Source: an uncultured Candidatus Saccharibacteria bacterium (GTDB lineage Bacteria; Patescibacteriota; Minisyncoccia; Phycocordibacterales; UBA2100). From it: a stretch of DNA of 50,379 nt. The notes under the pieces are model-generated. The model searched no databases, was not told the DNA's origin, and saw only the letters and a program-made list of their open reading frames with translations. A program made the translations under genes and the position numbers. The stretch lies in NCBI GenBank assembly GCA_964589005.1, contig CAZPQI010000002.1:1-50379 (forward strand), in the 5' to 3' direction. Below, piece after piece: positions 3,842 to 44,968 of the stretch; position 1 is the stretch's first letter; each line of letters starts with the position of its first letter.

Positions 3842-3913
3842 GTTGCATTCTCGCTAAGAGTTGAACCTACTTTTAGTGACGCTCACGGCTATCCAAAACT
3901 GCTATAGTTTATG

Positions 3914-4666
3914 TTAACGCAATGAGACTAAGGCACCGTATAATCCTGATTTTCCTTTAAGGTCAGTGATTTTACTTTTTGGACATCGGACATTTTTTAA
4001 AGCAACTTGTATTCGGTTTTTTTGTTGAACAGATATACCACCTCCAATCACGAAAACTTCAAAATTGTAATTCTCTGCTAGAGATGGCAGAGTTTCCTTT
4101 AAAGAGGTTAATATTTCTGTCCATTCTGATTCGTTTAATTTTTGGGCGGGTTTACCAAACCTCTTTTTAATGTTGTCTCCACCTATTTCGTGTTCTAGCT
4201 TATATATAGGTTCTCTATTTTTCGGTCGACTAACTACTGCTTCAGTTTTGTTCCAAATTATCTGAGCACATCCAACACCAGTGCCCCATGTAATGTAGAA
4301 AAAACCAGTTTGGTTAGGTTGACTAAAATAAGCCTCTCCCAAAGCTCCCATCTCGGCATCGTTCTTTACATGAATTAGACAGTCAAATTTTCCTGACAGA
4401 TTTTTTGCCAAAGGTTTATGAATCCAATCAGGCAAATTAGTAGAACCATCAAGTATGCCGTCACTATTTATACTTCCAGGTAAACCAATAGCGATAGCGG
4501 TGATTTTAATATTTAAAGAATTAATTTCCTCAATAATCTTTGTGACGCCTTGAATATAATCTTGTGGTGTTTCAAAAGAAATTTCATCACGAAATACAAC
4601 ATCCTCTAGTGATTCACAGGTAACGATTCTGATATTTGTACCTCCAATATCTATTCCAATAAACAT
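3914..4666 (-). CDS. ROK-family sugar kinase (glucokinase-like)
   Basis: N-terminal MFIGIDIGGTNIRIV, GLPGSINSDG, and NDAEMGALGEA, the actin-fold ATPase motifs of ROK kinases. Confidence 0.75.
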   Translation of the reverse strand: MFIGIDIGGTNIRIVTCESLEDVVFRDEISFETPQDYIQGVTKIIEEINSLNIKITAIAIGLPGSINSDGILDGSTNLPDWIHKPLAKNLSGKFDCLIHVKNDAEMGALGEAYFSQPNQTGFFYITWGTGVGCAQIIWNKTEAVVSRPKNREPIYKLEHEIGGDNIKKRFGKPAQKLNESEWTEILTSLKETLPSLAENYNFEVFVIGGGISVQQKNRIQVALKNVRCPKSKITDLKGKSGLYGALVSLR

Positions 4667-4771
4667 ATCATTTGTAAGTAGTCACTATTCTATCTAGCAA
4701 ATCTTTATAAATTACGATTCAATAATTTATCCTTCGGTGTGTTCTTTAACTTCCGAAGAAGTTTCAACGTG

Positions 4772-12247: not shown

Positions 12248-12445
12248 CAGCGGTAAACTAAAATTCGCTCAACTTTTGTTGAGCGAATTTTAGTTTATAA
12301 AGCAAATTGCTTTGCTTTCGACCGCTGTGTCGGGCGGAGCATGTTTTTATGACCCCACGGGAATAAAAACGGCGAGCCGGGGTCGAGCGCACTTAGTATT
12401 TTTGAGTGCAAAGCATGAAGAAAATACTTAGTGACGGGTGACCAC
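12248..12445 (+). repeat. tRNA-3'-linked structured repeat, copy E2 (downstream of tRNA-Arg-UCU)
   Basis: CAGCGGT...ACCGCTG stem enclosing a perfect 19-bp hairpin (12255-12296). This is followed by GTCGGGCGGAGCATGTTTTT...AAAAACGGCGAGCCGGGGTCGAGCGCACTTAGTA...AATACTTAGTGACGGGTGACC, which shares blocks with E1, E3 and E4. Confidence 0.8.
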
Positions 12446-15534: not shown

Positions 15535-15581
15535 TTGTATAGAAAAAGGTCGTGCGATTAGCACGACCTTTTTCTATACAA
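15535..15581 (-). terminator. Strong hairpin directly 3' of tRNA-Val
   Basis: Perfect 21-bp arms TTGTATAGAAAAAGGTCGTGC / GCACGACCTTTTTCTATACAA. Confidence 0.6.
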
Positions 15582-35056: not shown

Positions 35057-35665
35057 TTATTGATTATCTAAAATACTCCAAATAGTAGTTGCAGCATAAG
35101 TACGGTACGGAGACCATTTTTTTGAAAGCGACTCGATTTTCTTTTTGTTTGGAAGCGATTTTAATTTATATATTTTTTGTATTCCTTTTTGGAGCCCTAA
35201 ATCCCCAGAAGAAAATACATCTTCGTGTCCAAGAGCGAACATAAGAAACATTTCACTGCTCCACGGACCAATACCAATAACTTTTTGAAGTTCTTCACGG
35301 GCTTCCTCATCAGTTTTTTTATGAAGCGACGAAAGGCGTAATGAACGCGCGCGTACGCGCGCACTTAAATCTCGTACTGAGCGAATCTTTGCAAACGAAA
35401 TACCACTTTCTCGTAGTTTTGTATCGTTCATTTTCAAAATTGCTGTTGCACTAGGTTTGTTGCGGGGAAAGAGTGCTCTAAACTTGTTCCAAATAGATGC
35501 CGCCGCTTTACCCGAGAGCTGTTGTCCTACAATAGTGCGACACAGACTTGCGAATAAGTCTTTTTGCACTTGTGGACCATCACGCAAGTCTCCCTTAAAC
35601 GCACGAATCGCCGCGTACAATTTTGGGTCACTTTTTTTGAAATGATTGAGCACCTTTATGTTCAT
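35057..35665 (-). CDS. HhH-GPD superfamily DNA glycosylase (AlkA / 3-methyladenine glycosylase II-like)
   Basis: IVGQQLSGKAAASIW, HhH plus GPD loop LQKVIGIGPWSSEMFLMFALGHEDVFSSGDLGLQKG. Confidence 0.8.
   Translation of the reverse strand: MNIKVLNHFKKSDPKLYAAIRAFKGDLRDGPQVQKDLFASLCRTIVGQQLSGKAAASIWNKFRALFPRNKPSATAILKMNDTKLRESGISFAKIRSVRDLSARVRARSLRLSSLHKKTDEEAREELQKVIGIGPWSSEMFLMFALGHEDVFSSGDLGLQKGIQKIYKLKSLPNKKKIESLSKKWSPYRTYAATTIWSILDNQ
35347..35362. repeat. 16-nt GC palindrome GCGCGCGTACGCGCGC inside the glycosylase CDS
   Basis: Perfect palindrome that encodes ARVRAR in frame. Confidence 0.8.
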
Positions 35666-35721: not shown

Positions 35722-38616
35722 ATGGCTAGCGAAAAGGAATCAAAGAAAAGCGCTGTGGCTCTGCGCGAAGAAGAAATACAGAAATTCTGGGAAGAGAATG
35801 ATATTTTCAATAAATCTGTAGAAAAGGAAGCACCAAATGGCGATTATGTTTTTTACGATGGTCCACCGTTTGCCACAGGCACACCCCACCACGGACATTT
35901 AGTCCCCAGTGTTATCAAAGACGCTATTCCTAGATATTGGACGATGCGCGGATATCGAGTTGAGCGTCAGTGGGGATGGGACTGCCACGGGTTACCGATA
36001 GAAAATATAGTTGAGAAAGAGATAGGAACTAAGAATAAAAAAGATATTGAAAAGCTGGGAGTTAAAAAATTCAACGATCTTTGTCGCGAGAAGATTTTTA
36101 CCTACGCAGACGTATGGGACAAATTCATGCCTCGCTTTGGGCGTTGGGCTGATATGAGTAAGCCCTACCGCACTATGGATAAAGATTATATGGAGAGTGA
36201 ATGGTGGGCATTCAAAACACTTTACGATAAGGGGCTTATTTACGAAGATTATCGCTCAATGCATATTTGCCCACGATGCGAAACTACACTCGCACAAAGC
36301 GAAGTAACAGAGGGTTATGAGACTATAAAAGATTTGGCCGTTACGGTAGAGTTCCCATTAAAAGATGAAGAGAGCACATCAATATTAGCTTGGACTACAA
36401 CGCCATGGACATTACCAGGGAATGTTGCGCTTGCAGTTGGGAAAGATATTGACTATGTCACCGTTGAAAAAAAAGACCTGCCTGCGCAGGCAGGCGAAGG
36501 AGACGGAAAGCTCGTTCAGTTTATCATCGCAAAAGAAGCGCTTGATAATGTTTTCGGAGAAGACGAGTATACAGTTGTTTCAGAGATGAAAGGTTCAGAG
36601 TTGGTTGGTAAAGAATATATTCCACCTTTTGATTCATACACCAACGACGAGACACTAGAAAATCGCGAGAATGCATGGAAAATATATGCTGCTGACTTTG
36701 TAACAACCGACACAGGAACTGGAATAGCACATGAAGCTCCTGCATTTGGTGCTGAAGATATGGAGCTCGCACAAGAAGTAGGGTTGCCGATGATTAAGCA
36801 CGTTGGTATGGACGGCATTATTGCTCCTGAAGTTAAAGAATTGGCAGGGCTCTCCGTAAAGCCAATTGATGACCCACAAGCGACCGATGTAGAAGTAATT
36901 AAATTCTTAGCTAAAAAAGGAATACTATTTGCAAAAGAAAAGTACGAACACTCGTATCCTCATTGTTGGCGATGCGATACACCGCTGATTAATTACGCCA
37001 TGAGTTCGTGGTTTGTTGCAGTTGAAAAGATAAAAAAAGATTTACTTACCTACGCCAAGGAAATCAACTGGTCACCGTCCCATATGAAAGAGGGGCGTTG
37101 GGGAGAATGGCTTAAAGGTGCACGTGATTGGTCAATTTCACGACAGCGCTTTTGGGCGAACACTATTCCTGTGTGGAGATGCAAAAAGTGTAAGAAAGAC
37201 CGAGTGTTTGGCTCAGCCAGTGAACTTGAAGAGGCGAGTGGAGTAGAAGTAAATGATTTGCATAAAGAAGTTGTTGATGAAATCACTGTGCCATGTGAGT
37301 GTGGTGAAGAAATGCGACGTGACCCTGATGTGCTCGACACATGGTTTAACTCAGGCTCAGTGCCGTATGCTTCATATCACTATCCTTTTGAAAACAAAGA
37401 GAAAGTAAACAAAAGGATTCCTGCTGATTTTATTGCGGAAGGACAGGACCAAGTATCCAAGTGGTTTTATTACCAACATGTATTAGGTGGAGGGCTCTTT
37501 GGTAAGCACGTATTTAAAAATGTAGTGTCTCACGGGGTAGTATTAGCAGAAGACGGTAAAAAGATGAGCAAGCGTCTTAAAAATTATTCAGATCCACAAG
37601 GAGTAATTGATAACTATGGAGCGGACGCCATTCGTTTGTACTTGCTCAACTCTCCGGTGGTGCGAGCAGAAAATCTTAATTTTTCTGAACAAGGAGTGGC
37701 TCAAGTGGCGAGTAAAGTGGGAGGGCGTTTAACTAATATATATTCGTTCTATGAGCTATACAAAGACTCGGTACCGCACGAACTAAGTGGCGACAGTACT
37801 AATGTGTTGGACAGATGGATTATAGCGAGGATGTATCAGTTACATACTGAAGTAACACGAGCAATGGATAACTATGAGCTTGAAAGGGCCACGCGGCCAC
37901 TTGGGGAATTTATTGATGACCTTTCGACGTGGTATATTCGCCGCTCTCGCGATCGACTAAAATCTGACGATGAAGAAGACAAAAAAGCGGCACTCGAAAC
38001 TATTCGCTGGGTACTGCGAAAATATGCAAAAGTAGCTGCACCGTTTACTCCATTTATTTCTGAGTGGCTTTGGGCTAGAGTTAAAGGAGAAAAAGAACCA
38101 GAGAGTATTCATTTAGCAAACTGGTGCGAAGCACGGGAAATAGATACCGAAGTGCTGGAAAAAATGAAACAAGTGCGTGGTGTAGTTTCAGCAGCGCTTG
38201 AAAAACGGGCAGAGGCAAATATAAAAGTACGACAGCCACTCGCGTTACTCAAAATCCGAAATTCTAAATCCGAAATTCTAAACGACGAAGAACTTAAACA
38301 ATTGGTACTAGATGAAGTGAATGTAAAGAAGGTGGCGTTTGACGGGAGTATTACTGATGAAGTCGAAATAGATACAAATATTACACCTGAACTAAAAGAA
38401 GAGGGGGATGTACGAGAACTTATTCGTACCATACAAAGTGCGCGGAAAGAAAACGGACTCAATGCAGGGGACGCAGCGCGTGGGGTTATTTCTGGCTCAG
38501 TCGAAACTCTTGAGCTTGCAGTTAAGTTCGCCAACGAAATTGAAAAACAAACCTTGGTGACTGTTGAAAAAGGTGAAGAGCAAGAAGAAACGCTGATGGA
38601 AATCACAAAAAATTAA
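35722..38616 (+). CDS. ileS: Isoleucyl-tRNA synthetase
   Basis: PPFATGTPHHGHL (HIGH), CP1 editing-domain motif WTTTPWTLPGN, and KMSKRLKN (KMSKS). Confidence 0.95.
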   Translation: MASEKESKKSAVALREEEIQKFWEENDIFNKSVEKEAPNGDYVFYDGPPFATGTPHHGHLVPSVIKDAIPRYWTMRGYRVERQWGWDCHGLPIENIVEKEIGTKNKKDIEKLGVKKFNDLCREKIFTYADVWDKFMPRFGRWADMSKPYRTMDKDYMESEWWAFKTLYDKGLIYEDYRSMHICPRCETTLAQSEVTEGYETIKDLAVTVEFPLKDEESTSILAWTTTPWTLPGNVALAVGKDIDYVTVEKKDLPAQAGEGDGKLVQFIIAKEALDNVFGEDEYTVVSEMKGSELVGKEYIPPFDSYTNDETLENRENAWKIYAADFVTTDTGTGIAHEAPAFGAEDMELAQEVGLPMIKHVGMDGIIAPEVKELAGLSVKPIDDPQATDVEVIKFLAKKGILFAKEKYEHSYPHCWRCDTPLINYAMSSWFVAVEKIKKDLLTYAKEINWSPSHMKEGRWGEWLKGARDWSISRQRFWANTIPVWRCKKCKKDRVFGSASELEEASGVEVNDLHKEVVDEITVPCECGEEMRRDPDVLDTWFNSGSVPYASYHYPFENKEKVNKRIPADFIAEGQDQVSKWFYYQHVLGGGLFGKHVFKNVVSHGVVLAEDGKKMSKRLKNYSDPQGVIDNYGADAIRLYLLNSPVVRAENLNFSEQGVAQVASKVGGRLTNIYSFYELYKDSVPHELSGDSTNVLDRWIIARMYQLHTEVTRAMDNYELERATRPLGEFIDDLSTWYIRRSRDRLKSDDEEDKKAALETIRWVLRKYAKVAAPFTPFISEWLWARVKGEKEPESIHLANWCEAREIDTEVLEKMKQVRGVVSAALEKRAEANIKVRQPLALLKIRNSKSEILNDEELKQLVLDEVNVKKVAFDGSITDEVEIDTNITPELKEEGDVRELIRTIQSARKENGLNAGDAARGVISGSVETLELAVKFANEIEKQTLVTVEKGEEQEETLMEITKN
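36477..36494. repeat. 18-nt perfect GC-rich palindrome CCTGCCTGCGCAGGCAGG in frame within ileS
   Basis: Read directly from the sequence. It encodes LPAQAG. The same 9-nt arms recur in glyQS at 41664-41699. Confidence 0.95.
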
Positions 38617-41307: not shown

Positions 41308-42729
41308 ATGACTACATCGGATAAAAATACAGGAGAAAGTAATAAAGACTCGCGCTCTACTTCTAACGGGATGGAAAAAATCGTAAGTCTCGCAAAACGT
41401 CGCGGATTTATTTTTCAAGGTTCAGAAATTTATGGTGGCTTAGCGGGTACATGGGACTATGGCCCACTTGGCGTGGCTCTAAAGAACAATATTAAGAAAC
41501 TATGGTGGGATACGTTTGTTGAAAAGCGCGACGATATGTATGGGCTCGATGCTTCTATTTTAATGAACGAGAAAGTGTGGGAAGTAAGTGGGCACACGGG
41601 TGCTGGGTTTACCGATCCGCTTGTTGAATGCAAAAAATGCAAGAAACGATTTCGCGAAGACCACCTGCCTGCGCCTGTCCGCGCAGACGGGCAGGCAGGC
41701 CTTGAAGATGTAAGTACGTGCCCCGAGTGTAAAGGAGAGCTCGGAGCAAAAAAAGATTTTAACTTAATGTTCGAAACCAAAGTTGGTGCGCAAGGTGACA
41801 CGAAAAGTTATTTACGACCAGAAACAGCACAAGGAATATTTGTGAATTTTAAAAATGTCGTAGACACCATGCGTCCCAAGCTTCCGTTTGGTATCGCACA
41901 AATTGGTAAAGCATTTCGTAACGAAATTGCTCCACGGGATTTTATTTTTAGAACTCGTGAGTTTGAGCAAATGGAAATTGAATATTTTGTAGAAGAAAGT
42001 ACATGGGAAGATGAATTTGAAAAATGGCGCACACGTGTGTGGGAATTTATAGAGTTACTCGGGCTTTCTAAAGAAAATGTACAAGAAGTCGACATTCCTG
42101 CAGGTGACCTTGCTCATTACTCAAAAAAAACTATAGACTTTGAATACAATTATCCTGGGAAAGGCTACGACGAACTACTTGGATTAGCGTATCGTACCGA
42201 TCACGACTTGAAGGTTCACCAAGAGGGAAGCGGAGAAAAAATGTTGTACACTCCAGTGGAAGGAGATCCATTCATTCCGCATGTTATCGAGCCATCGTTT
42301 GGAGTCGAGCGTGCACTTATGGCAGTTCTATCAGAAGCGTACACTGAAGACGACTTAGGAGACGGGCGCGTATTTCTAAAATTAAAACCAGAGCTTGCTC
42401 CAATAAAAGTTGCCGTGTTTCCATTGATGAAAAATCGTCCAGAGCTTGTGGCAAAAGCACGTGAAGTATTCGACGAATTAAAACAAACCATTCCACAAAT
42501 TATGTTTGATGATAACGGTAATGTGGGCAAGCGTTATCGTCGCCAAGACGAAATTGGTACAATCTTGACAGTTGTTGCAGACTTTGAGACATTGGAGGAC
42601 GATACGGTTACTGTTCGTGATCGTGATACGGGCAAACAAATAAGAGTGGCAACTAAGGATTTACTCAACATAGTTACTCAGGTTATAACTGGTGCTGACT
42701 TGTTTAAATTCGGTAAGGTTATTTCGTAA
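41308..42729 (+). CDS. glyQS: Glycyl-tRNA synthetase (alpha2 dimeric, GlyQS type)
   Basis: RRGFIFQGSEIYGGLAGTWDYGPLG, class II motifs YLRPETAQGIF and GKAFRNEI.PR, PHVIEPSFGVER, and an insertion with CKKC...CPEC. Confidence 0.95.
   Translation: MTTSDKNTGESNKDSRSTSNGMEKIVSLAKRRGFIFQGSEIYGGLAGTWDYGPLGVALKNNIKKLWWDTFVEKRDDMYGLDASILMNEKVWEVSGHTGAGFTDPLVECKKCKKRFREDHLPAPVRADGQAGLEDVSTCPECKGELGAKKDFNLMFETKVGAQGDTKSYLRPETAQGIFVNFKNVVDTMRPKLPFGIAQIGKAFRNEIAPRDFIFRTREFEQMEIEYFVEESTWEDEFEKWRTRVWEFIELLGLSKENVQEVDIPAGDLAHYSKKTIDFEYNYPGKGYDELLGLAYRTDHDLKVHQEGSGEKMLYTPVEGDPFIPHVIEPSFGVERALMAVLSEAYTEDDLGDGRVFLKLKPELAPIKVAVFPLMKNRPELVAKAREVFDELKQTIPQIMFDDNGNVGKRYRRQDEIGTILTVVADFETLEDDTVTVRDRDTGKQIRVATKDLLNIVTQVITGADLFKFGKVIS
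41664..41699. repeat. 36-nt palindromic element in frame within glyQS (same arms as the ileS palindrome)
   Basis: CCTGCCTGC-[18 nt GCCTGTCCGCGCAGACGG]-GCAGGCAGG. The window 41674-41691 (CCTGTCCGCGCAGACGGG, offset 1 nt from the spacer) matches the ileS 18-mer at 14/18. It encodes LPA-PVRADG-QAG. Confidence 0.9.
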
Positions 42730-44332
42730 TCTCCACTATATTTCTGTCCGTTTCTCGTATATTTTCAGCAAGAGTTTGCTTACTAATATCAAGAATTTCT
42801 AGTGTTCTTTTTAGGATGTATATGGGGATTCTGTTTTTCTTTAGTTTCCACGCTGATAGTGTGCCTTTATGTATGTTTAGGAAGTAGGCTGCTTTTTTGT
42901 ATGTCCCGAAGTTTCTAAGTAGCTTTTGGAAAAGTTGCTTATGTAAATGATTGCTCAAAAACACAGACGTTTCTTGGCTGGTGTTTTCGTATAATTTACG
43001 TGGCTTTTTTGTCAAATGAATTTTCCGTTGCTTTTGTAATATTCTTAGATATGTAGTGATAATTGGTCTGCTACGTTTAAAATGAGTCTCAAGAAATGCT
43101 ATATCGCAGCCCTCTATGAGTCGGATTAAATCAAGCACCTCACTAATGTTGAAATTTGTTTTGCGAGAATTTGGTTTGGGAACCGGACGTTGTGTAAGGT
43201 CACCTTGTTGCCAAAGCAAAAGTTTATTTTTTTGTGTATTGGGCTCAAAATATTGAAGTATTTTTTTAGGCTCATTTTCTGATGTTGTATACAGGCAATG
43301 TTCTCCTCTTTTGTTAGTAGTTTTTCCGTGACGAATTCCGTCTTTTGTAAAAATTGTTGATATTGAATCTATCAGACCTTTACTTTTAAGGCTAAGCGAC
43401 ATTTGAGAATTATTATTTACAGATCCATCAAACATCAATACTCCTTTTGCGAACTCTTTTTGTATACGCAAATTCGCTTCACATATTATATCTGGTTCGT
43501 GTGCGCTGTATGTCTTTGGCCCAGGCATAACTCCGAAAAAAGTTGTTAGATACCTAGATAATATTTTATTCGAATAAGCGACTCTCCACGCATTAGTCTT
43601 CTGCGTGTAAAATGCCGGACTTATTTTGAATTCTTCCTCGACCCATTTTATAAATGCATCAACAGAATCTTTATAATTTTCTGTTAGTTCTACTACGTTG
43701 TGCGACTGCGAATGAAATTTAGCCAATTTTGTTTGCAAGAGCTTTCTCATATTAGTTGCATTACTTGTATTCACTTGCGTGCTTACATAATGTCCTAACT
43801 TTCGCGACTCGCTTCTGCCTTCTGAAAAGTGAATACGATTTACTTCAAGGTGTAATTTTATTTGTTCCAGTTCCTCTCTGTTGTTGCACTCTATTACAAT
43901 TTGCTCACTCAAACTCCCATCAGCCATAAAAGCCCCTAGTATTTTTGCAAGATTTTCGTTTAGCTTTTTAGGTAGAGTTATGGGTTTTGCAGAAGCTGAA
44001 TTCACCTTTAATATTTCAGTTACTTCATTTATATCTGACAGGAATTTCGTCTTTTTCCTTGTATCTCCGAGTTTTGCCAGCGTGAGAATAAATGGAATAG
44101 GATAGTACAGCCTATCTTGGTGCAGCATGTTTTTTGAAGTACTTAATGCACAGCTTAGCATCTGCGAAATCTTTCGTGCTAGTTTTTCTCGAGACCACCT
44201 ATGTTGTTTTAATACTTCTTGTTCTTTTTCTAGCAGCATTTGTTGGATGTTTGCTCCGTGCACGCATATCCATGATCGTGGATGTAAATCACGATCTTGG
44301 TGTAGCAGTAATAGATTAAAAACTTTACTCAT
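42719..44332 (-). CDS. Free-standing double-motif LAGLIDADG endonuclease-like protein with flanking HTH-like regions
   Basis: Two dodecapeptide motifs, LAKILGAFMADGSL and FAKGVLMFDGSV, about 170 aa apart. C-terminal HTH-like YKKAAYFLNIHKGTLSAWK. The maximal ORF extends to 44377. The 3' end overlaps the glyQS stop region by 11 nt. Confidence 0.75.
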   Translation of the reverse strand: MSKVFNLLLLHQDRDLHPRSWICVHGANIQQMLLEKEQEVLKQHRWSREKLARKISQMLSCALSTSKNMLHQDRLYYPIPFILTLAKLGDTRKKTKFLSDINEVTEILKVNSASAKPITLPKKLNENLAKILGAFMADGSLSEQIVIECNNREELEQIKLHLEVNRIHFSEGRSESRKLGHYVSTQVNTSNATNMRKLLQTKLAKFHSQSHNVVELTENYKDSVDAFIKWVEEEFKISPAFYTQKTNAWRVAYSNKILSRYLTTFFGVMPGPKTYSAHEPDIICEANLRIQKEFAKGVLMFDGSVNNNSQMSLSLKSKGLIDSISTIFTKDGIRHGKTTNKRGEHCLYTTSENEPKKILQYFEPNTQKNKLLLWQQGDLTQRPVPKPNSRKTNFNISEVLDLIRLIEGCDIAFLETHFKRSRPIITTYLRILQKQRKIHLTKKPRKLYENTSQETSVFLSNHLHKQLFQKLLRNFGTYKKAAYFLNIHKGTLSAWKLKKNRIPIYILKRTLEILDISKQTLAENIRETDRNIVEITK

Positions 44333-44548
44333 AATACCTATATTATAGCATGTCTGTAACTTGAAATAGAATGACACCGTTATTCTGCAGATTGCGACAC
44401 AGGAGAACAGACACGCGTTGCACTTACTGCGCTTGTTGGTGAGTTGAAATTAGGCTAACCCTAGAACGTCAGTAGGTTGATAAAATTTACATAGTGGAAT
44501 AGAGTCCATGTGTTCATTAAATCACCACAATAAGGAAAGGAGGAAGAT

Positions 44549-44890: not shown

Positions 44891-44968
44891 TATACCCAGC
44901 ACTAACTTCATTGTTGTGCATCGTATGCACGCGAACTTCGTTCGACAATGAAGTTAGTGCTGGGTATA
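44891..44968. repeat. Perfect 24-bp inverted repeat enclosing two small hairpins (three-way junction)
   Basis: TATACCCAGCACTAACTTCATTGT (44891-44914) pairs with ACAATGAAGTTAGTGCTGGGTATA (44945-44968). The loop holds GTGCAT-CGT-ATGCAC and CGAAC-TTC-GTTCG. It ends 10 nt before the likely transporter ATG. Confidence 0.9.

Follow-up and report, generated by a model that had tools for sequence, protein, structure and literature searches.

A short palindrome inserted in frame in two aminoacyl-tRNA synthetase genes and dispersed across bacterial phyla

Rickettsia palindromic elements (RPEs) are repeated palindromic DNA sequences of ~100-150 bp, found in Rickettsia and its relatives, that lie in frame in essential genes and are tolerated in surface regions of the proteins; no nuclease is known to be associated with them. 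Repetitive extragenic palindromic (REP) sequences and REPINs are GC-rich, imperfect, extragenic hairpins, a few of which flank a single-copy gene for a REP-associated tyrosine transposase (RAYT, an HUH Y1 transposase) thought to move REPs in trans. Miniature inverted-repeat transposable elements (MITEs) are non-autonomous and dispersed, have palindromic ends and internal sequence (50-500 bp), produce target-site duplications and in some cases lie within genes. Here we describe PAL, a perfect palindrome found in a 50,379-nt stretch of DNA from an uncultured bacterium (GenBank contig CAZPQI010000002.1, positions 1 to 50,379; referred to as the window), where it is inserted in the genes ileS and glyQS. 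The inserts in the window are very probably insertions of a dispersed mobile element. The commonest form, CCTGCCTGCCGGCAGGCAGG, is called PAL20; PAL18 is PAL20 minus the central CG, and 16-, 19- and 21-nt forms are rarer.

PAL resembles RPEs in being inserted in frame in protein-coding genes and tolerated in the protein. It differs in size (16-21 nt, with inserts of 18 and 36 nt in the window, versus ~100-150 bp), in being identical across phyla and in its link to cassettes of a GIY-YIG nuclease gene and tRNA genes. A previous sequence-only reading of the window had likened the insert to an RPE. That reading was in essence correct, and the likeness holds for in-frame palindromic insertion, but PAL, with about one-sixth of the length and an unrelated host range, is not an RPE. 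With REP sequences PAL shares the form of a short, GC-rich, dispersed hairpin, some copies of which lie beside a nuclease gene, and in both systems the type of hairpin co-varies with the enzyme. However, PAL is perfect, enters coding sequence (although PAL20 is mostly non-coding) whereas REPs are extragenic, and is linked to a GIY-YIG nuclease (PF01541) whose gene is embedded in a duplicated tRNA gene; no search aimed at RAYT genes was made. Unlike MITEs, which are likewise non-autonomous, dispersed, palindromic and found in genes, PAL makes no duplication (gains are exactly 18, 36 or 20 nt) and consists of two abutted 8-10-nt arms with 0-2 nt between them, with no internal sequence and no arm pairs of a parent element in 2 Mb of loci.

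REPs are described as short (20-40 nt) sequences with a conserved GTAG or CGTC tag (PMC3733652). PAL has no such tag, and no flanking base is conserved around 62 PAL20 and 12 PAL18 copies. The GC clusters of yeast mitochondria and the coding palindromes of Nematomorpha mitochondria, the latter reported to reach 284 bp (PMC6649704), resemble PAL as GC-rich or perfect inverted repeats in coding genes of AT-rich genomes that leave the genes undestroyed. They are, however, organellar, lineage-specific and much longer, and none is a fixed cross-phylum 18-20-mer or tied to a nuclease/tRNA cassette. With respect to the cassettes, SegB of phage T4 is reported to be a free-standing GIY-YIG homing endonuclease that is encoded in a tRNA gene cluster and acts on tRNA-gene DNA (PMC2330249). 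In the loci studied here a GIY-YIG gene also adjoins tRNA genes, directly before an intact tRNA gene in ~55 of 80 loci. In contrast, the phage enzyme SegB is larger and has a DNA-binding domain, and neither a duplicated tRNA half with hairpins nor a dispersed palindrome family is known to have been described for it.

The palindromic insertions in ileS and glyQS

The closest matches of the isoleucyl-tRNA synthetase (IleRS) of the window belong to metagenome-assembled genomes (MAGs) of Pacebacteria, Kaiserbacteria and Wolfebacteria, at no more than 74% identity, and the genes of the window point to a placement in the candidate phyla radiation (CPR)/Parcubacteria. The insertions and their host genes are as follows.

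35722 to 38616, plus strand: ileS, isoleucyl-tRNA synthetase, host gene of PAL18 (Pfam tRNA-synt_1 and Anticodon_1; best matches named isoleucine--tRNA ligase; PDB IleRS structures 8c8v and 1ile)
36477 to 36494, unstranded: PAL18, CCTGCCTGCGCAGGCAGG, perfect 18-nt palindrome in ileS; net in-frame insertion of 18 nt, read as LPAQAG
41308 to 42729, plus strand: glyQS-type glycyl-tRNA synthetase (GlyRS) gene, host of the element in the next line, which lies between two CxxC knuckles (CKKC ... CPEC)
41664 to 41699, unstranded: PAL-derived element, PAL18 arms at 41664-41672 and 41691-41699 around 18 extra bases at 41673-41690; net in-frame insertion of 36 nt, read as LPAPVRADGQAG

The sequence-only reading had described a perfect, GC-rich palindrome in frame in ileS, and both the sequence and the open reading frame (ORF) agree with it. 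Of the 18 bases, 14 are G or C, compared with a G+C content of 41.1% for the window overall, and the 964-codon ORF reads D-LPAQAG-E across the insert (residues 253-258 of IleRS). As RNA, PAL18 in ileS is predicted to form a hairpin of -14.3 kcal/mol (z = -3.6). LPAQAG had been suspected to be an indel limited to a lineage. Indeed, when 60 IleRS orthologues were aligned, it was missing in 58, which read KKD^EGxG, with the six additional codons of the window exactly at ^. Orthologues that do have the insert carry the same DNA sequence, the opposite of ancestral residues spelled by unrelated codons. At the DNA level, the window reads GAC-CTGCCTGCGCAGGCAGGC-GAA where a syntenic relative (L002) reads GAT-GAA. 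Structure models were predicted by AlphaFold for both synthetases from 40-sequence alignments. The model of IleRS places the insert in a loop (residues 252-263) between strands 244-251 and 264-270, that is, at the tip of a β-hairpin in the CP1 editing domain, with a predicted local distance difference test score (pLDDT) below 50 at residues 254-261. This low-confidence loop is consistent with the surface position proposed beforehand, and the solved IleRS structures (8c8v, 1ile) have an alignment gap at the turn that holds the insert.

The element in glyQS begins with CCTGCCTGC (41664-41672) and ends with GCAGGCAGG (41691-41699), is read as H-LPAPVRADGQAG-L and has the same codon phase as the insert in ileS. 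The sequence common to both genes extends one further base on each side (A-CCTGCCTGCGC ... GCAGGCAGG-C). That the arms are shared in the same frame had been recognized in the sequence-only reading; the element is not, however, a simple pair of arms around a loop but a 36-nt imperfect hairpin with a 9-bp outer stem and an inner bulged stem (-24.5 kcal/mol as folded RNA). From its sequence it looks like PAL18 with 18 more bases at the centre. When these inner 18 nt were searched for as a separate universal element, only 4 viral matches were obtained, in high-GC coding contexts (e.g. LSAQTGIS), and these were treated as chance; a T-variant family, CCTGTCTGC..GCAGACAGG, gave only 2 viral matches. 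Translation of GlyRS probably starts at ATG 41371 (MEKIV...), 21 codons downstream of the listed ORF start, since all orthologues begin there. The insert, of 12 codons, is missing in 117 of 121 GlyRS orthologues, including the closest one (L328, 90% identical in protein), whose empty site reads GAAGACCAT^CTTGAAGAT and lacks the 36 bases that the window carries at ^. In the GlyRS model the insert, between the two CxxC knuckles, is predicted to be coil with pLDDT <50 throughout. Compared with the DNA of orthologues, neither the ileS nor the glyQS insert has a target-site duplication.

Exact copies of the 9-mer arms occur in the window only at these two sites. Matches with one mismatch are at chance level (8 observed, 5.0 expected), and no other copy of the 18-mer or the related 20-mer is present in the window with up to 3 mismatches (0.01 expected). 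Based on base composition, the exact 18-mer is expected ~1e-7 times in 50 kb and a second site with both arms within 30 nt ~3e-6 times. The pair in ileS and glyQS is therefore not a product of chance, an origin that shuffles also rule out, and the earlier view that two genes would hardly share such a palindrome by accident is upheld.

Both insertion sites are also occupied in other lineages. The GlyRS codon boundary is filled by a perfect PAL18 in L330, by PAL18 with one substitution in L329 and by a 21-nt PAL20-like form, CTACCTGCCGGCAAGGCAGGT, in L331, so that with the window 4 of the 121 sequences are carriers. The codons flanking these inserts have diverged normally, including at synonymous sites, whereas the inserts are near-identical. 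At the IleRS boundary, P0015 (L001) carries TCATCTGCGCAGGCAGGC. In a neighbour-joining (NJ) tree of IleRS, which is poorly resolved, P0015 is not sister to the window, and its nearest relatives P0017 and P0012 have no insert. These alignments indicate that the GlyRS site (four lineages) and the IleRS site (two non-sister lineages) are recurrent targets of PAL. The empty GlyRS site can be folded as AAGA-CCA-TCTT, which would put the insertion point at the junction of the loop and the 3' stem.

The PAL family and its GIY-YIG/tRNA cassettes

We scanned one genome per species for CCTGCCTGC-N(0-30)-GCAGGCAGG and recovered at least 120 loci. Spacers of 2, 1 and 0 nt were found at least 65, 20 and 12 times, respectively, while each other spacer up to 30 nt occurred 0-7 times among the matches listed. 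The spacer of 2 nt is nearly always CG, which gives PAL20, and a spacer of 0 gives PAL18. A scan of viral contigs yielded spacers of 0, 1 and 2 nt at least 22, 7 and 35 times, and a control 20-mer palindrome with shuffled arms gave no matches. Among the 120 genome loci listed, ~29 are from Patescibacteria and the others from Bacteroidota, Omnitrophota, Planctomycetota, Gammaproteobacteria and Acidobacteriota; the Bacteroidota carriers include three cultured Flavobacteriaceae isolates. PAL-bearing assemblies were obtained by Illumina, Nanopore, HiFi, single-cell and isolate sequencing and belong to certain taxa only. Searches of cultured-phage records (2.3 Gb), plasmids (7.3 Gb) and 5,426 E. 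coli genomes (28 Gb) yielded no PAL20. Copy density ranges from the 2 copies in the 50-kb window up to 4 in 12 kb (L222). PAL is a cross-phylum family, the commonest form of which is a 20-mer located mostly outside genes. In the sequence-only reading such an element was not known from CPR-like genomes; PAL is not special to the CPR. Neither the 18-mer nor the 20-mer occurs in the open-access papers searched.

PAL18 lies inside ORFs in 5 of 13 cases, compared with 6 of 53 for PAL20. In frame as LPAQAG, it is found in other Patescibacteria, in genes for RodA/FtsW and SecF (L020), a ComF-like protein (L021), TopA, directly after a CxxC knuckle (L117), and RuvX (L110). Coding PAL20 copies have one extra base after the 20-mer and are read as LPAGRQ. 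The copies that survive inside genes keep the reading frame and lie in tolerant loops. We also observed repeated LPAGRHG-like motifs in two high-GC viral contigs (L226, L181). Other GC-rich perfect palindromes with zero loop were seen in PAL-bearing loci: CTCCGCCAGCTGGCGGAG in two unrelated genomes (L023 3331-3348 and L074 2960-2979), CCTTGTCCGCCGCGGCGGACAAGG in three copies in one viral contig (L222) and CCCCTCCGGCCGCGGCCGGAGGGG at L004 2683-2706. The recurrence of such palindromes hints at further families.

Neither a flank consensus nor a conserved target motif was found around the 62 PAL20 and 12 PAL18 copies, and the PAL unit therefore ends sharply at 18 or 20 nt. An over-representation of A at position -3, on one side of the flanks only, may be noise or due to duplicate loci. 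The precision of the insertion is seen in the curated complete genome of a WWE3 bacterium (L071; also L247), in which a relic tRNA-Lys half of 30 nt reads GGGGACGTAGCTCAGTGGTAGA-PAL20-GCAGCGGC. An intact tRNA-Lys copy ~260 nt away is without exactly those 20 nt, with nothing duplicated or lost. PAL is thus inserted precisely as a unit, and neither a duplicated target site nor a shared flanking motif accompanies it. Its own copies are among its targets: a PAL nested in another, one base off the centre, was found in L040, L081, L044, L055, L100, L226 and more loci. Among the copies listed, 9.5% are located within the loop of an inverted repeat whose stem is 6 bp or longer, compared with 1.7% of random positions, which means that PAL lands in loops of existing hairpins, its own centre included, above expectation. 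Solitary or decayed half-arms are ~7-fold above expectation in PAL-bearing loci, and most of them belong to a PAL whose other arm differs at one or two bases. The idea of a parent transposon that has PAL at its ends was rejected, as no consistent long-range arm pairs were present in 2 Mb of loci.

We also examined the genes near PAL. All five small GIY-YIG ORFs in the 2 Mb of PAL-selected loci lie within 20-422 nt of a PAL. For the converse comparison, 80 metagenome loci (L247-L326) were fetched solely by similarity to the GIY-YIG protein. Of these, 14 contain an intact PAL and at least 7 more contain variants, nearly always 20-50 nt upstream of the ORF; half-arms of PAL number 39 in the 200 kb of these loci, versus 1.5 expected. 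The cassettes have a common order, in which a relic copy of a tRNA gene's 5' part is followed by a GIY-YIG ORF of ~79 residues (PF01541) and then by an intact tRNA gene. The relic usually comprises nucleotides 1 to ~33, sometimes extends to the T-loop and once is full length (L257). The intact gene begins 0-30 nt past the ORF in the clearest cases and is within ~150 nt in the ~55 loci mentioned above; the tRNAs are of many specificities (L247-L326; L071 2108-2480).

Relic and intact tRNA genes are identical except for short GC-rich hairpins that interrupt the D, anticodon and T arms of the relic where the loop meets the 3' stem. PAL is one type of such hairpin and occupies loops of the relic. 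In L257 (~1375-1475), the full-length second tRNA-Arg(TCT) upstream of the GIY-YIG gene is interrupted by a PAL variant in the D-loop and by another where the anticodon loop meets its stem; the downstream copy is intact. Other relics contain other hairpins: TCCGCC-N3-GGCGGA, CCAGCC-N4-GGCTGG, TCGGCC-N3-GGCCGA, CCCGCC-N3-GGCGGG and TGCGCC-N3-GGCGCA. These mini-hairpins have the form YCNGCC...GGCNGR and are not accompanied by a duplication; PAL fits the form, as CC-TGCC-TGC...GCA-GGCA-GG. When the nucleases were ordered by NJ, hairpins of the PAL type were confined to one clade (~19 of 28 members), and other types were found in other clades. To judge from this organization, the cassette looks like a selfish unit that invades tRNA genes. 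No description of cassettes that combine a GIY-YIG gene, a tRNA relic and hairpins was found in the open-access literature searched.

Other palindromes and features of the window

Two further palindromic insertions were found in a TatD-like gene.

48876 to 48896, unstranded: 21-nt GC hairpin, GCGCGCGCC-GAA-GGCGCGCGC, in the TatD-like gene; replaces 12 nt of orthologues, net gain of 9 nt; -24.5 kcal/mol
48978 to 49012, unstranded: 35-nt perfect palindrome with 17-nt arms and a 1-nt centre, in the TatD-like gene; net in-frame gain of 24 nt; -31.0 kcal/mol (z = -6.8)

Both are unique to the window among 5 relatives, and both are also present in an independent assembly from another sample (L327) at 99.8% identity. 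As candidate universal elements they were rejected, because the core of the 35-mer had no matches in viral contigs and the 21-mer had 2. In style the 21-nt hairpin is that of the mini-hairpins of the GIY-YIG cassettes, and its sequence probably reflects the same process; no such cassette mini-hairpins were found in the 8 kb beyond the window that L327 covers. When twelve syntenic genes of the window and L002 were compared, 4 of 11 internal insertions of at least two codons specific to the window were strong palindromes (those in IleRS, GlyRS and the two in the TatD-like gene), versus none of the 2 specific to L002. On this comparison, the lineage of the window seems prone to palindromic insertions.

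A palindrome of a different kind, GCGCGCGTACGCGCGC, lies on the minus strand at 35347-35362 in an HhH-GPD gene. Here the orthologue's GAGCGCGTATCTAACCGA has become GCGCGCGTACGCGCGCGT with no change in length, one arm having been rewritten as the complement of the other, and a template-switch mutation is the best reading of this sequence. In ileS itself, ~38257-38295 (residue ~850) contains a 15-nt tandem duplication (CGAAATTCTAAAT / CCGAAATTCTAAAC) that accounts for five codons not present in L001 and L002. This duplication represents ordinary slippage, unlike the palindromic inserts.

Perfect 24-nt inverted repeats, 30 nt apart, at 44891-44914 and 44945-44968 span the start of an AI-2E transporter gene (ATG 44948); they could form a hairpin with a regulatory role or represent a further inserted element. 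In L328, a 274-residue ORF (3855-4679) with a faint LAGLIDADG match lies between the genes for the AI-2E transporter and MetRS. The counterpart region of the window holds a 552-residue ORF that is unrelated to it, is encoded on the minus strand (42719-44377) and has no Pfam match. The only known RNA families found in the window are tRNAs. Directly downstream of tRNA-Lys, tRNA-Arg and tRNA-Val are perfect AT-rich hairpins of 19-21 bp (54-91, 12254-12297 and 15535-15581), which are unusually long and are presumably terminators. Downstream of the S6 gene, the window (~50238-50280) has ~59 extra bases at a 16-nt repeat compared with L327 (1543-1558), an indel polymorphism between populations.

Origin and significance of PAL

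Taking both parts of the proposal together, we believe, with somewhat better than even confidence, that PAL is a very small (16-21 bp) non-autonomous mobile palindrome that is likely moved by GIY-YIG nucleases. Mobilization by these nucleases, considered by itself, is a possibility that we rate a little below even. By this route the nuclease, a relative of structure-specific nucleases, would nick the loop/stem junctions of extruded hairpins and, by analogy with RAYT and REP, might excise and/or insert its cognate mini-hairpin in trans. A self-complementary 18-20-mer freed from a cruciform could pair again as a blunt-ended duplex and then be joined to DNA at a different nick or break, which would explain the precise gain, and possibly precise loss, of the element. 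The copies in ileS and glyQS are probably near-neutral passengers, each with a stable predicted hairpin in the mRNA.

Several observations weigh against this proposal. Copy numbers and taxon shares from the genome and viral scans are lower bounds that depend on the order in which the collections were scanned. The link between nuclease and PAL is an association, and it could arise if PAL merely favours hairpin DNA resembling that of tRNAs, most of which is found in the relics beside cassettes; only a few percent of PAL copies adjoin a GIY-YIG gene. That hairpin types correspond to nuclease clades could mirror the phylogeny of the hosts. As for the host organism, no GIY-YIG gene is present in the 50-kb window. 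Inspection of the sequence revealed no obvious hairpin at the IleRS target site, and the 18 nt at the centre of the GlyRS element have no recurrent counterpart in the family scans. With regard to recent mobility, no polymorphism between empty and filled sites was seen within a population.

PAL could instead be a scar of break repair, made anew at each break by an enzyme that adds, for example, CCTGCCTG(C)(C) to both 3' ends, or by hairpin-capping before joining, with GIY-YIG supplying only the breaks. Such an origin would account for the variable centre between constant arms (16-, 18-, 19-, 20- and 21-nt forms, and (CCTG)3(CAGG)2 in L006), for the sharp ends without target duplication and for the gathering of copies in a non-essential relic beside the nuclease gene. 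However, symmetric forms far outnumber asymmetric ones (at least 65 twenty-mers, at least 12 eighteen-mers and about 12 nineteen-mers centred on C/G), a poor fit with two independently added tails. The quite different hairpins, with 3-4-nt loops, of other nuclease clades are better explained as cognate DNA elements, and we know of no bacterial enzyme with such an end-adding or capping activity. We consider a repair scar unlikely. A single ancient insertion in each gene, followed by vertical descent with many precise losses or by transfer of the segment through homologous recombination, would explain why inserts of different lineages share an identical codon boundary and a common DNA sequence. 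We nevertheless regard it as very unlikely and favour repeated insertion at hot spots, because the forms at one site differ (18 nt, 18 nt with one change, 21 nt and 36 nt), the carriers are scattered, as among the relatives of P0015 and in GlyRS, and the 90%-identical relative is empty. Moreover, the near-identity of the inserts against synonymously diverged flanking codons and the occurrence of the 18-mer in unrelated genes of other genomes also speak against one old event.

Selection of a functional motif, either an mRNA hairpin acting on pausing or stability or the LPAQAG peptide, gained by convergence, would be in keeping with the repeated gains at the same positions in two synthetases and with the stable RNA hairpins. 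We find it highly improbable, as most orthologues do without the insert, the inserts are predicted to be disordered, the commonest form of PAL occurs in non-genic DNA, within pieces of relic tRNAs and inside other copies of itself, and it is implausible that different phyla converged on the same 18 bases. Even less credible is local template switching (quasi-palindrome mutation) that occurred independently in each gene. Its signature does exist in the window, in the HhH-GPD gene, but both arms of PAL are new and missing in orthologues, and it is refuted for PAL because the same 18 or 20 nt are found at unrelated loci in unrelated phyla. Finally, a block with sharp ends that resembles a perfect self-complementary oligonucleotide, seen mostly in MAGs and not in the cultured phage, plasmid and E. 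coli collections, might suggest an artefact of sequencing or assembly, for instance a linker or an adapter. The flanks are, however, contiguous and in frame in essential genes, decayed or variant copies are present at orthologous sites in independent samples, several sequencing technologies and isolates are represented and yet only certain taxa, and the other palindromic insertions of the window were reproduced in the independent assembly at 99.8% identity. The variant copies at orthologous sites, together with the lack of PAL20 in the phage, plasmid and E. coli sets, exclude a general technical artefact, and we attach virtually no weight to this explanation.

Mobility of PAL thus remains our preferred explanation, and PAL is the visible tip of a wider system that appears to be undescribed. 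More tentatively, and with less than even confidence, we propose that this system is a new class of mobile DNA. Its members would be hairpins of 15-21 bp that small structure-specific GIY-YIG nucleases mobilize in trans, with no duplication of the target; the genes of these nucleases would propagate by entering tRNA genes and duplicating the 5' part. The class would be cross-phylum and, in small-genome bacteria, would continually seed short in-frame peptides in essential genes, at sites that are hit recurrently.

In practice, PAL copies are easy markers of insertion events. They can also mislead alignments; in addition, 20-mers shift the frame and can disturb gene calling, and relic halves can interfere with the annotation of tRNAs. 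If our interpretation holds, PAL would to our knowledge rank among the smallest mobile elements described, and an element of only two abutted 8-10-bp arms would be able to spread across phyla. The very common, uncharacterised small GIY-YIG proteins encoded beside tRNA genes would acquire a role, and the cassettes would constitute a natural means of inserting and excising DNA at hairpins without a footprint. Short loop insertions specific to a lineage are common in proteins of the CPR and other streamlined bacteria, and PAL would offer a mechanism by which they arise.

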